A stretch of DNA of 16,049 nucleotides from a virus (lineage: Duplodnaviria > Heunggongvirae > Uroviricota > Caudoviricetes). The position numbers are program-made. Numbering within the stretch: the stretch's first letter is position 1; the number at the start of each line of letters is the position of its first letter. The stretch is taken from the IMG/VR virus record IMGVR_UViG_2778261567_000016, positions 1 through 16,049 of that record. One strand, given 5' to 3'. Positions 3,001 to 6,000 of the stretch are shown here, in pieces.

Positions 3001-6000
3001 TTACCGGGTTCAACGCGATCGCAGCCGACAAGGCCAATGGTCGGCAGAACAATGGCTAAAGCAAAAATAATTTTTTTCATTTTTTATCCTTAGTGAAAGA
3101 AAGACCCTTGTAAATGGCATAAATGCAGGGCGGGGTCAGAAACGCCAGTGCAAAGCCAGAAATAACTGCTATCGTATCCTTCATGGATATAAGGAACGGA
3201 ACGAGTAATCCGTAAATGCATGCGATAATTGCCAGTAAAATTACTATTGTGAAATACAGTTTCATTGGTATGTGGTATCCCGATATTTTTAACTGACAGA
3301 CAGCGCAATAAAGAGAATAATGATTTCTGTTATTGTCAGTACTGTGGCAAGGATTAAAAGCAGTTTTACTCTGCTTAAGTCACGGTTGCTTTTCATATAA
3401 ACGGTTAGTAAAAAACGGAAGAATTATATTCCTCTTAATATTTAATGTGTCACTGGCCTTCTGGCATACCATGAGTATTCAGGTCGTTAATCATTTCATC
3501 CAGAAGGAGTTCAAGCCCTTCTCGCCCCATGTCTGAAACAATGAAACCTTTATCTGGGTATGTAATGAGCATTTTCTGATAAAGAAATAGTGCTCTACCC
3601 ATTCCTTCTGCCTCGCCGTATTTTTGAATTAAATTCCATTCAATATACTGCTGTAAGGCAAACCGAATGGGGCCGGGATATATCGTCATAACCCCATGCT
3701 TCCCGTTATATATTACGGCGCGATCTGTTGTTCCGTGTTCGTTTGGGATATCAATAGTGCCATTCTTGTTTTCTTCTTCGTTGATGAATGTCGTCACGTA
3801 CAACCAGCGCCACTGGGCTACCTTCATCTCAACAGGGAGTTTACCCAGTAATCCTGCATTGTCGGCTTGTGCGAGGCATTGAAGGATTTGCAAACCTTTC
3901 ACATTAGGATGATCGAATGCACCTGCATCCAGACGGCGGATTGCGTCGTGATAATCAATAGTCATACTGCCAGTTCGTATACCTGTGGCTGTTGCTTCAG
4001 CCTGGAATTCAGTGTATTGCATGATATTTACTCCTCATCTTCATCAGCTGGTGCAATAACGTCATATCCTGCCTTTTCTGCAATAAACAGGAATGTTGAA
4101 AGACTTCCTACAAGTTCATCGTCATGAACATGACGAATTAATATTACTTTCCCGTTTTTGATGGTCAGCAATACTCTGGTTTGCTCGTGTTCTGCTGTTT
4201 TCTGATGCATTATTATCTCCCGTATGCTTTACGCAGAAACAAGCAGGCAATATGCATGTAATTTTTCCCGTGCTGTGCAATAAGGCAGGCTGTTTTGTGT
4301 GATGCCTTATGTTTTATAAAGGTCATATAAAACCTCCTGTTGATTAAGGGTGTGATAATCCCCGGCGATTAAGCCGTAATATATTATCCGGAGATGACTT
4401 GTTCTATTTAACTGGTTAGTTCTTTTTCAGCAGCTGCTTCAGCATAGCAACGTGCAAATTCAAGAACTTCATCACCTGTTCTTTTTATTGCATCGTTGTC
4501 TGACATTTGTAATACAACAACTGCGCATAATAAATTATGGATATTGTTTGCAAAGGAATCCGCTGCCAGGCATAAGCCTTCATACTTATCATGGATATTG
4601 CCAGTCATTGTTGCTACTCCTTTGCTTCTGATTTTCCCGTTAACAACCACATCAAGTCACAATTAAGCGCACTGGCCAGTGGTACTATCTGAGCAGCTGG
4701 AACTTCATGGATGCCGCATTCCCAGTCGTTTATGGGGTCACTATAGGTATGAATCATGCGGGCAAGATCAGATTCGGTTAATCCCAGTTTTGTACGGGCG
4801 CTTTTGATGCGTGCGCCAATACTTTCCACATGGACTTCAGGCACATTTACGCGAATAACTGACTCGCTGTTTTTTTCACTCAGCAGAGAAAGCGGATCGC
4901 ATCCCAGGACGTTTGCCAGGGGGATAAGCATGCTGATGGTTGGTTCGTACTCTCCGCTCTCCCACTGGATGATAATTTCTTCATCGAGATCGAGCAGCCT
5001 GGCGAGTTCGGCAGTTGTTAAGCCGCAGGCTTCACGTTTGGTGCGTATGCAGGCTATCTTGTTGCCTGAGCGAATAGAATGTTGTTGTTTTGTCGATGCG
5101 ATCGCTAAAGCATATTCATGAGTAAATTCCAGCACATCAAACCCAACCTCTTTTAATCGCGTATCATCCAGGAGGTTGAAGGTGCGAACAGCACTGAGCA
5201 GGTTTGCGATGGTTAATGCAAAAGAATCGAGGTCTAAATCATCACATAAGACCTTGTTGTAAGTATTGAGGCTACATGTTTTTGGTGTTGTTTGTAAGGC
5301 TTCCATATCATCACCATGCAATTCTAAGTTGAAGTTAATCAATATATAATTGATGGTGAGATATTATGTATCAGGAAAACGTGTGTCAATCAAAAATTGA
5401 TAAACTTGATTTTTTTGTAATGTGTGACCAATAATTTAATTTAAAATCAATAACTAACCAAATCTGTTGATATTGAATGGTACCGATGAGATGACTTTTG
5501 ACTGGATATATAGCAGCGCCATTCCCTCTTTTTCGATGCTCCATGGCTGATAGTTGGGATTGTCTGATAAGACCATGATCTTGCTTCCAATTTTTTGAAG
5601 TCGTTTGATGTAACATTCGCCATCAAAGCAAAATGCATAAATGCCATCACCGTCAAAATAAGTTACTGTTTTATCTAAAAACAGCAAGTCCCCTGGGGAG
5701 ATTGTTGGGGCCATGCTGTCCCCTCTGGCGTTACCAATTTCTATGTTCTTGAATGCTCTGTTACCGACCAGGCGGCGGGCATATTCAGGATCAAGTTCTA
5801 TTGAGCGTACAACATCAATTAGATCTCCCCGAACATGAGTTCCGTCGCCGCAGCTGGATTCAACATCCAGTACATTGAACACAACGCTGTCTTCTCTTGT
5901 ATGGTGTTTTTCAGCTGAAGAAAGTGTTGATGAGGTGTCTTCACCCAAAAACCAGGATTGTGGATAACCACTAATTACTGATAGTTGTGCAAGTTTATCG

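Follow-up and report, generated by a model that had tools for sequence, protein, structure and literature searches.

A two-gene module at the head of the early-left operon of phiP27-like prophages: a tandem helix-turn-helix protein and a stand-alone paralog of its N-terminal hairpin

Why should a phage carry, directly behind the gene for a protein that looks like a regulator, a much smaller gene that encodes little more than the first domain of that protein again? The question is raised by a stretch of phage DNA of 16,049 nucleotides (nt), IMG/VR record IMGVR_UViG_2778261567_000016, referred to here as the window. On its minus strand, a gene for a protein of 230 amino acids (aa), with an N-terminal alpha-hairpin and two helix-turn-helix (HTH) domains, is followed after a gap of 5 nt by a gene for a protein of 66 aa, which we call S66. 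An earlier note on this DNA had described the small protein as a copy of the N-terminal domain of the large one, and had suggested that such a copy might act as a decoy, partner or dominant-negative form of the regulator. Both open reading frames (ORFs) are present on the minus strand at the positions given there (4408-5306), and the best explanation of the pair is that it is a conserved two-gene module heading the early-left (pL) operon of phiP27-like lambdoid prophages.

The relationship between the two proteins is statistically significant. BLASTP aligned residues 24-70 of the large protein with residues 14-60 of S66 without gaps, with 22 identities in 47 positions (47%) and an E value of 5e-9, and the Smith-Waterman score of 86 was reached by none of 2000 shuffled sequences (z = 13.0). 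The motif reported earlier, DSFA-x5-NLL-x-AV ... VLEF-x3-YA, is correct, and the identity is higher than the 40% or so that had been estimated by eye. PHROG profiles lead to the same relationship in both directions. The large protein (ATG at 5306, MEALQ..., RefSeq WP_000387833.1) belongs to phrog_4836 (E = 1.7e-92) and also matches phrog_4587, while S66 (ATG at 4608, MTGNIH..., RefSeq WP_000147360.1) matches phrog_4587 over positions 1-65 of its 66 residues (E = 1.2e-34), phrog_5451 (E = 1.7e-17) and, in turn, phrog_4836. The Pfam family HTH_3 (PF01381) finds two stretches in the large protein, residues 87-138 and a second HTH (E = 4.5e-17, 62.3 bits against a cut-off of 23), which bears out the two XRE-type HTH domains described before; the 434 repressor and P22 C2 both align with the second of them (HTH2). 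The region shared with S66 is novel in the sense that it is uncatalogued in Pfam and NCBIfam: no Pfam family was found at E ≤ 0.01 in S66 or in residues 1-80 of the large protein, and NCBIfam has no model for the shared region.

AlphaFold2 (AF2) models predict S66 to be a hairpin (predicted local distance difference test score, pLDDT, 92; predicted template modelling score, pTM, 0.78), in which a short N-terminal turn is followed by two long antiparallel helices, residues 16-34 and 39-65. The corresponding domain of the large protein is modelled as helices 26-45 and 49-78 (pLDDT about 81). The large protein as a whole appears as three independent modules joined by linkers of low confidence, and since its pTM is 0.32 no fixed packing between the domains is predicted. 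An exhaustive profile search with the hairpin against 1.84 billion representative proteins returned only 38 clusters, which fall into three architectures: free proteins of 60-80 aa, proteins of about 121 aa with the hairpin at the C-terminus, and proteins of 136-347 aa in which it lies N-terminal to one or two XRE HTH domains. The hairpin is thus an autonomous, shuffled module that can be free, C-terminal or N-terminal. A word-indexed homology search with the small protein found near-identical E. coli sequences only. The family alignment is gapless over about 55 residues, except for one two-residue gap in the rows of N-domain types A and A2 (the types are described below), and its motif is F-K-G-L-x-L-x-P-D-x-[AF]-x-N-I-x-x-L-[LI]-x-A ... 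G-x-x-[VI]-[LI]-x-F-A-x-x-Y-A-x-A-A, with one invariant tyrosine. Conserved hydrophobic columns span arcs of about 180-240 degrees on each helix of the hairpin. As a rule of thumb, this looks wider than one partner helix would bury, and the wide arcs are weak evidence that is compatible with a further protein interface.

Is the small gene more than debris? It could be a left-over, without function, from a partial duplication of the large gene; two broken alleles among 80 loci, a nonsense codon in locus L014 and a frameshift in L038, might be taken to point that way. These alleles are ordinary prophage decay. Among 29 distinct intact DNA alleles of the hairpin domain from related loci, the ratio of nonsynonymous to synonymous substitution (dN/dS) was 0.14 within the 66-aa type, 0.19 within the 121-aa type and 0.19 between the two, with synonymous divergence near saturation between them (pS 0.67, dS 1.8). 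Together with a strong Shine-Dalgarno (SD) site, a predicted fold of high confidence and homologs in other genera, these values make a remnant very improbable. The small gene is a real gene under purifying selection and not a degraded fragment. Its SD sequence stands 8 nt before the ATG, still within the large gene (Table 1), and in related loci the small gene begins at +5, +1 or -4 relative to the stop codon of the large gene. Judged from this spacing, the arrangement would best be explained by translational coupling of the small gene to the large gene.

The window is the early region of an Escherichia coli lambdoid prophage of the phiP27-like (Shiga-toxin-phage) type, with its integration site beside mlrA. 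It is 99.8% identical to prophages of several genomes of Shiga-toxin-producing E. coli (STEC), and 95-99% identical to Shiga toxin (Stx) 2a- and Stx2d-converting phages and one non-Stx prophage of the LC5678xx series. Its left arm is collinear with that of the Stx2e phage phiP27, in which L11 is cI, L10 the HTH protein and L08 the hairpin protein, all three being annotated as 'unknown'. A region of 2.4 kb was matched in 364 of 5426 complete genomes, and the prophage group that carries it includes Stx1a-, Stx2a- and Stx2d-converting phages. In the window the order on the minus strand is cI (HTH plus S24 peptidase, ending at 5454), a promoter, the large gene and the small gene. That the large gene is the first of the early-left operon, as had been proposed, is supported by the strong sigma-70-type promoter between the cI stop codon and this gene and by the divergent orientation of cro. 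From its position we infer that this promoter acts as pL.

Two perfect palindromes flank or overlap the promoter and are probably immunity-specific OL operators, to judge from their sequence and placement. They were also considered as operators of the large protein, and this was rejected: the operator-like motifs of the pL region vary with the immunity (cI) type and the HTH domains of the large protein are invariant, so that the palindromes go with cI/cro rather than with these conserved HTHs. In the intergenic region between cI and cro (compare 6143-6276) there is no such palindrome; it contains instead the direct repeat ATTCTTGAT twice and a third CTTGAT. It seems, therefore, that this immunity type has left and right operators of different construction.

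Table 1. Features of the two-gene module and its surroundings, in window coordinates
Feature	Position	Strand	Evidence or remark
Small gene S66, 66 aa, stand-alone hairpin domain	4408..4608	-	phrog_4587, AF2, dN/dS
Large gene, 230 aa, homolog of phiP27 L10; N-terminal alpha-hairpin and two XRE-type HTHs	4614..5306	-	ORF, RefSeq, Pfam, PHROG
Shine-Dalgarno sequence AAGGAG of small gene	4617..4622	-	Last two sense codons (AAG GAG) of large gene
HTH2, residues 163-223, net charge -3	4638..4820	-	Pfam, AF2; 434 repressor N-terminal domain aligns
HTH1, residues 85-141, nearly invariant across the family, net charge -6	4884..5054	-	Pfam, AF2, charge count
Mosaic junction at N-domain/HTH1 boundary (residues ~85-90)	5038..5054	-	Megablast, translations
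N-terminal hairpin domain, residues ~24-72, paralogous to small protein	5091..5237	-	BLASTP, shuffle test, alignment, AF2
Two perfect palindromes TCAAT-N5-ATTGA	5339-5353 and 5386-5400		Flank or overlap pL
Early-left promoter (pL-like), -35 TTGACA, 17-nt spacer, -10 TAATAT	5361..5389	-	Consensus scan, 10/12 matches
cro (YdaS-type)	6276-6533	Divergent from cI/large gene	ORF and Pfam

How the two genes travel was followed in a survey of 79 typed IMG/VR loci related to that of the window (loci carry our numbers, L002 and so on; genes of phiP27 have two digits). Among homologs of the large protein, HTH1 and the linker are almost invariant and are preceded by about ten unrelated or barely related types of N-domain. 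Megablast matches of 92-93% to heteroimmune Stx phages end at query positions 839-846, that is, at 5038-5045 of the window, and heteroimmune phages such as those of loci L003 and L004 carry unrelated N-domains on an HTH body that is 90-97% identical. The N-domain follows the repressor. Types A and A2 share one cI cluster of at least 90% identity, to which the cI of type A3 is 86% identical. A different cI comes with each of types B, C, D, E and F. Since both the N-domain type and the pL motifs track the cI type, the hairpin of the large protein belongs to the immunity (cI/cro) segment. The immunity of type F has a further peculiarity, in that its cI-like protein of 151 aa (L047; also L087, 1600-2055) lacks the S24 peptidase domain, so that induction of such a prophage would need an antirepressor or some other route that does not depend on RecA.

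The small gene goes instead with the conserved left arm. In nearly all of the 79 loci the large gene has a hairpin ORF behind it, usually the next ORF and otherwise within about 0.6 kb, and the order is the same in phiP27, ASU11, PhiR49_2, distant relatives and a Pantoea genome. The hairpin ORF takes three forms, of 66 aa (S66), 63 aa (S63, which also matches phrog_4587) and 121-127 aa, and its type tracks the adjacent 3' end of the large gene, not the N-domain. Some loci therefore hold matched combinations, in which fused and free hairpins are homologous (A or A2 with S66, B with S121, B or D with S63, and the distant locus L088; z from 6 to 25), and others hold unmatched ones (C with S66, E with S66, C with S127, F with S63). 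The order cI, hairpin-HTH protein, sometimes an extension, and hairpin recurs in distant relatives. In "Candidatus Pantoea gossypiicola" (L090, 1881-3847) a cI like that of the window is followed by a protein of 183 aa with a hairpin and a single HTH, then by a 69-aa ORF that corresponds to the N-terminal extension of the 121-aa form, and then by an overlapping free hairpin of 67 aa; the 121-aa form is thus split into two overlapping ORFs. This Pantoea locus was the one true match in a scan of genome contigs with the HTH profile, a match in Erwinia being a false positive, a CI repressor. Single-HTH homologs occur elsewhere as well (P0107, P0113, P0117 and others; L002, 3700-4248); in these HTH2 is gone and a tail rich in glutamine and glutamate often follows. 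From the sequence at the joint (...ANILGCDP/MWLLTG...), it looks as if the ends of HTH1 and HTH2 had recombined in frame.

The duality of fused and free hairpins is found a second time. The type-E N-domain is paralogous to a free 63-aa protein of phrog_6882 (z = 16.6, none of 3000 shuffles), whose ORF (MKTPLNILEEVAAQIKENTSMLEFIF...) lies about 189 nt after the large gene in loci L047 to L056 (for example at 3896-4087 in L047). Profile-profile comparison of the three hairpin groups detected no homology between them (probability below 5%), and they were treated as separate families. Free paralogs that had been suspected for types C, G and H (64-69-aa ORFs in L087 and L088) and two ORFs of L088 considered as members of the type-E family were rejected, with shuffle z values of 2.5 or less, and local phmmer searches found no small relatives for N-domain types C, F, G, H and I. 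Supposed natural forms of 142-176 aa without an N-domain were likewise set aside as miscalled start codons or truncations.

What the large protein does is not told by the names it has been given. Homologs are labelled 'unknown', 'CII-like regulator' or 'DicA', and none of these labels has an experimental basis. The CII label on phrog_4836 and on ASU11 gp50 is unsupported by the sequence: the large protein has no Phage_CII match in Pfam, and its gene lies in the pL operon beside cI and not after cro, where phiP27-like phages have no cII-like gene. The DicA label, used in phage phi467, is not borne out either, since the large protein scores below the cut-off of the DicA model (NCBIfam NF007257, 61.8 bits against 101) and matches it in the HTH part alone. 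Nor does either protein belong to a known defence system: in PADLOC the large protein drew generic HTH matches only, and S66 drew none. In lambda, the first gene of the pL operon is N, which encodes a basic RNA-binding antiterminator with a variable N-terminal specificity part in the immunity segment and a conserved C-terminal part. The large gene resembles N in position and mosaic structure only, as the two proteins have no similarity and the large protein is acidic with folded domains; phiP27-like phages carry no N gene at the head of the pL operon.

Closer parallels exist in arrangement and in possible mode of action. In SinR and SinI, the biofilm switch of Bacillus subtilis, conserved residues form the surface of the heterodimer and helices hook into an intermolecular four-helix bundle (PMC3163267). 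The likeness is that an XRE-type HTH regulator carries a two-helix module and an adjacent small gene encodes that module alone, and S66, as a paralog of the two-helix non-DNA-binding domain of the large protein according to BLASTP, the shuffles and the AF2 models, stands to it as SinI does to SinR. There is no sequence relationship, as shown by the absence of a Pfam match in the hairpin, and the pair is therefore not a member of the SinI/SinR family. The module is N-terminal here and C-terminal in SinR, there are two HTHs rather than one and both are acidic, and the small gene lies downstream in the same operon instead of being separately regulated as sinI is; the interaction itself is predicted here by analogy. 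In arbitrium phages, the small helical protein AimX is proposed to bind the oligomerisation domain of the XRE-type repressor AimC and so prevent its oligomerisation, and the authors liken their pair to SinI/SinR (bioRxiv 10.1101/2025.11.23.689978). That system differs in having Firmicutes hosts and another genome position, is likened to ours by description and not by sequence, and has a prophage repressor in AimC, whereas the large protein is a product of the pL operon beside a separate CI of the S24 type. A third parallel is Mor, known from TP901-1 and phi13. Its gene heads the early lytic operon, and this small HTH-fold protein binds the N-terminal domain of the repressor directly (PMC11149083). 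Mor provides a model of an HTH protein at such a position that works without classical operator binding; it is compared by mode of action, being a single small HTH protein without a hairpin domain and without a stand-alone paralog. Direct homologs are L10 and L08 of phiP27 (PHROGs 4836, 4587 and 5451), in a collinear early-left region, and these differ in being a single-HTH form and a 121-aa form of the hairpin protein. The logic of a regulator and its antagonist is therefore known, and the decoy or partner idea of the earlier note, which is plausible and was put forward there as new for this position, is new in this family and at this position but not in kind. The protein family, its genome position and the shuffling of fused and free forms across immunity types are undescribed, and neither the accession numbers nor the sequence motifs turned up in the papers of the library searched.

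A possible role for the small protein, suggested by analogy with SinI and SinR, could be to pair with the hairpin of the regulator and so alter its oligomeric state and activity. The first gene would supply an alpha-hairpin tethered by floppy linkers to two XRE-type HTHs, and the second would supply the same hairpin alone. If the hairpin is a module for protein-protein association, two of them could pack into the kind of four-helix bundle known from SinR/SinI. Produced from the same transcript and in a fixed ratio to the regulator, the free hairpin would bind the N-terminal hairpin of the latter. It would thereby shift the regulator's oligomeric state and, through this, its activity at the time when pL fires, early after infection or induction. 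Since the types of small protein and N-domain reassort freely, the pairing would have to rest on residues conserved in the family, and action in trans on homologous regulators of co-resident prophages would be possible. The paralogy, the family alignment, the confident fold of S66, the separate hairpin module, the wide hydrophobic arcs, the selection on the small gene, the coupling of the genes, the conserved synteny, the recurrence in a second hairpin family and the precedents of SinI/SinR and AimX/AimC all speak for this reading, which we prefer, though tentatively and at less than an even chance. Several observations weigh against it. The type of the small protein does not covary with the N-domain type of the regulator over the 79 loci, and in 26 of them a small protein of the hairpin family of S66 (F1) lies beside a non-homologous N-domain (types C, E and F); pairing in cis therefore cannot be its only role. 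The free hairpin related to type E is never beside a type-E regulator in the sample. Structure searches with the hairpin return generic helical hairpins only, and both would-be partners are acidic, with net charges of -4 for the N-domain of the large protein and -6 for S66. Finally, the large protein may not be a DNA-binding regulator in the first place. Its net charge is -13 (pI 4.8), with -6 on HTH1 and -3 on HTH2, and the acidity extends through the family, in which full-length proteins average -13.6 and the ranges are -4 to -9 for HTH1, -1 to -4 for HTH2 and -3 to -8 for free hairpins. Classical XRE DNA-binding domains have net charges of +2 to +9. Helix 3 of HTH1 reads D-E-E-I-I-I-Q-W-E and the second 'recognition helix' YSDPINDWE, both of them acidic. 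DNA binding by the large protein is therefore not assured, and as both HTH domains are strongly acidic, activity on the pL/pR operators may be the wrong one to look for.

Such acidic HTH domains may bind protein rather than DNA, and this leads to a different possibility, that the hairpin, whether free or fused, has as its target not another hairpin but a third protein, which might be a host factor or the cognate CI or Cro. The tandem-HTH protein would then be a protein-binding modulator or antirepressor, with the hairpin giving specificity and the conserved HTH body acting as effector, and the free hairpins would either be effectors in their own right or compete for targets of that kind. This would account for the tolerance of unmatched combinations, and it agrees with the strict linkage of N-domain and cI type, with a mosaic junction exactly at the boundary between N-domain and HTH1, and with the acidity of the whole family, whereas the N-terminal domain of the window's own CI has a net charge of +5 and Cro of +3. 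In HTH2, Ser, Asp and Asp take the positions of Gln28, Gln29 and Gln33, the base-contacting residues of the 434 repressor; HTH1, with its acidic helix 3, has an MBF1-like bridging factor as its best solved relative; and Mor shows that HTH-fold antirepressors of the repressor N-terminal domain exist. However, linkage to cI would be expected in any case, since the two lie within about 150 bp of each other and offer no homology in which to recombine. Net charge by itself does not rule out DNA binding, and neither the hairpin nor S66 matches known antirepressor families (Ant/KilAC, Rha and others) in Pfam, PHROGs or NCBIfam. We regard a common target as almost as likely as the pairing of hairpins, and as a strong rival to it. 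It may also be that the paralogy records only the fusion and fission of small early genes onto an HTH body, the N-domain being the regulator's own dimerisation module and the small proteins serving separately, in host takeover or anti-defence, as many small acidic early phage proteins do. The three architectures of the hairpin, the split of the 121-aa form in Pantoea, the free reassortment of N-domain and small-gene types and the recruitment of two unrelated hairpin families fit such a history, and the single-HTH forms, looking like recombinants, suggest a highly recombinogenic region. A mere by-product of shuffling does not readily explain why a hairpin ORF follows the regulator in almost every locus and across genera, often translationally coupled, or why the fused/free duality recurs in two families, and we consider it somewhat less likely than the other two readings, though still a strong rival. 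More speculative still, and improbable on present evidence, is that acidic hairpins form a plug-in specificity system for cross-talk between prophages, in which the immunity-linked hairpin would target its own CI/Cro or regulator and the free hairpins expressed from pL would titrate or poison the counterparts in heteroimmune, co-resident or superinfecting prophages.

The module is followed in the early-left operon by conserved phage proteins of unassigned function, encoded on the minus strand at 4028-4210 (60 aa, phrog_340, with the C-terminal parts of two 'anti-repressor' PHROGs as further, weak matches) and 3450-4022 (190 aa, phrog_1515). Further along, a hydrophobic ORF of 62 aa (3077-3265, minus strand) overlaps by 4 nt the downstream gene for a lipoprotein with an SPFH domain (2253-3080, minus strand; phiP27 L05, annotated as 'putative serine protease'), and the two look like a membrane-protein pair within the operon. 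In the early-right region, just 3' of an Ant/Rha-like ORF (7177-8199), Rfam gathering-level matches to the Hfq-binding small RNA isrK (60 bits; 8250-8326, plus strand) and to C4 antisense RNA (82 bits; 8351-8438, plus strand) adjoin each other; presumably this pair resembles a P1/P7-style c4-type antisense control element or a locus of the isrK-antQ type.

Prophages with this module at the head of their early-left operon form a widespread group in E. coli, Stx-converting phages among them. Should the free hairpin modulate the hairpin-HTH protein, or should CI/Cro be the target of both, the module would be a switch of the SinI/SinR type in enterobacterial phages, one that would bear directly on prophage induction and Shiga-toxin release, and the roughly ten N-domain types on one conserved body would offer a natural set of interchangeable interaction modules in which the evolution of specificity could be followed. 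Were the idea of cross-talk to hold, polylysogenic STEC would contain a dominant-negative network of competition or co-induction between prophages. That would account for the variety of N-domain types and for the way in which they reassort without regard to the small genes. Even if the two proteins act independently, they define an uncatalogued domain family and show clearly how domains are shuffled between a regulator and small early genes.

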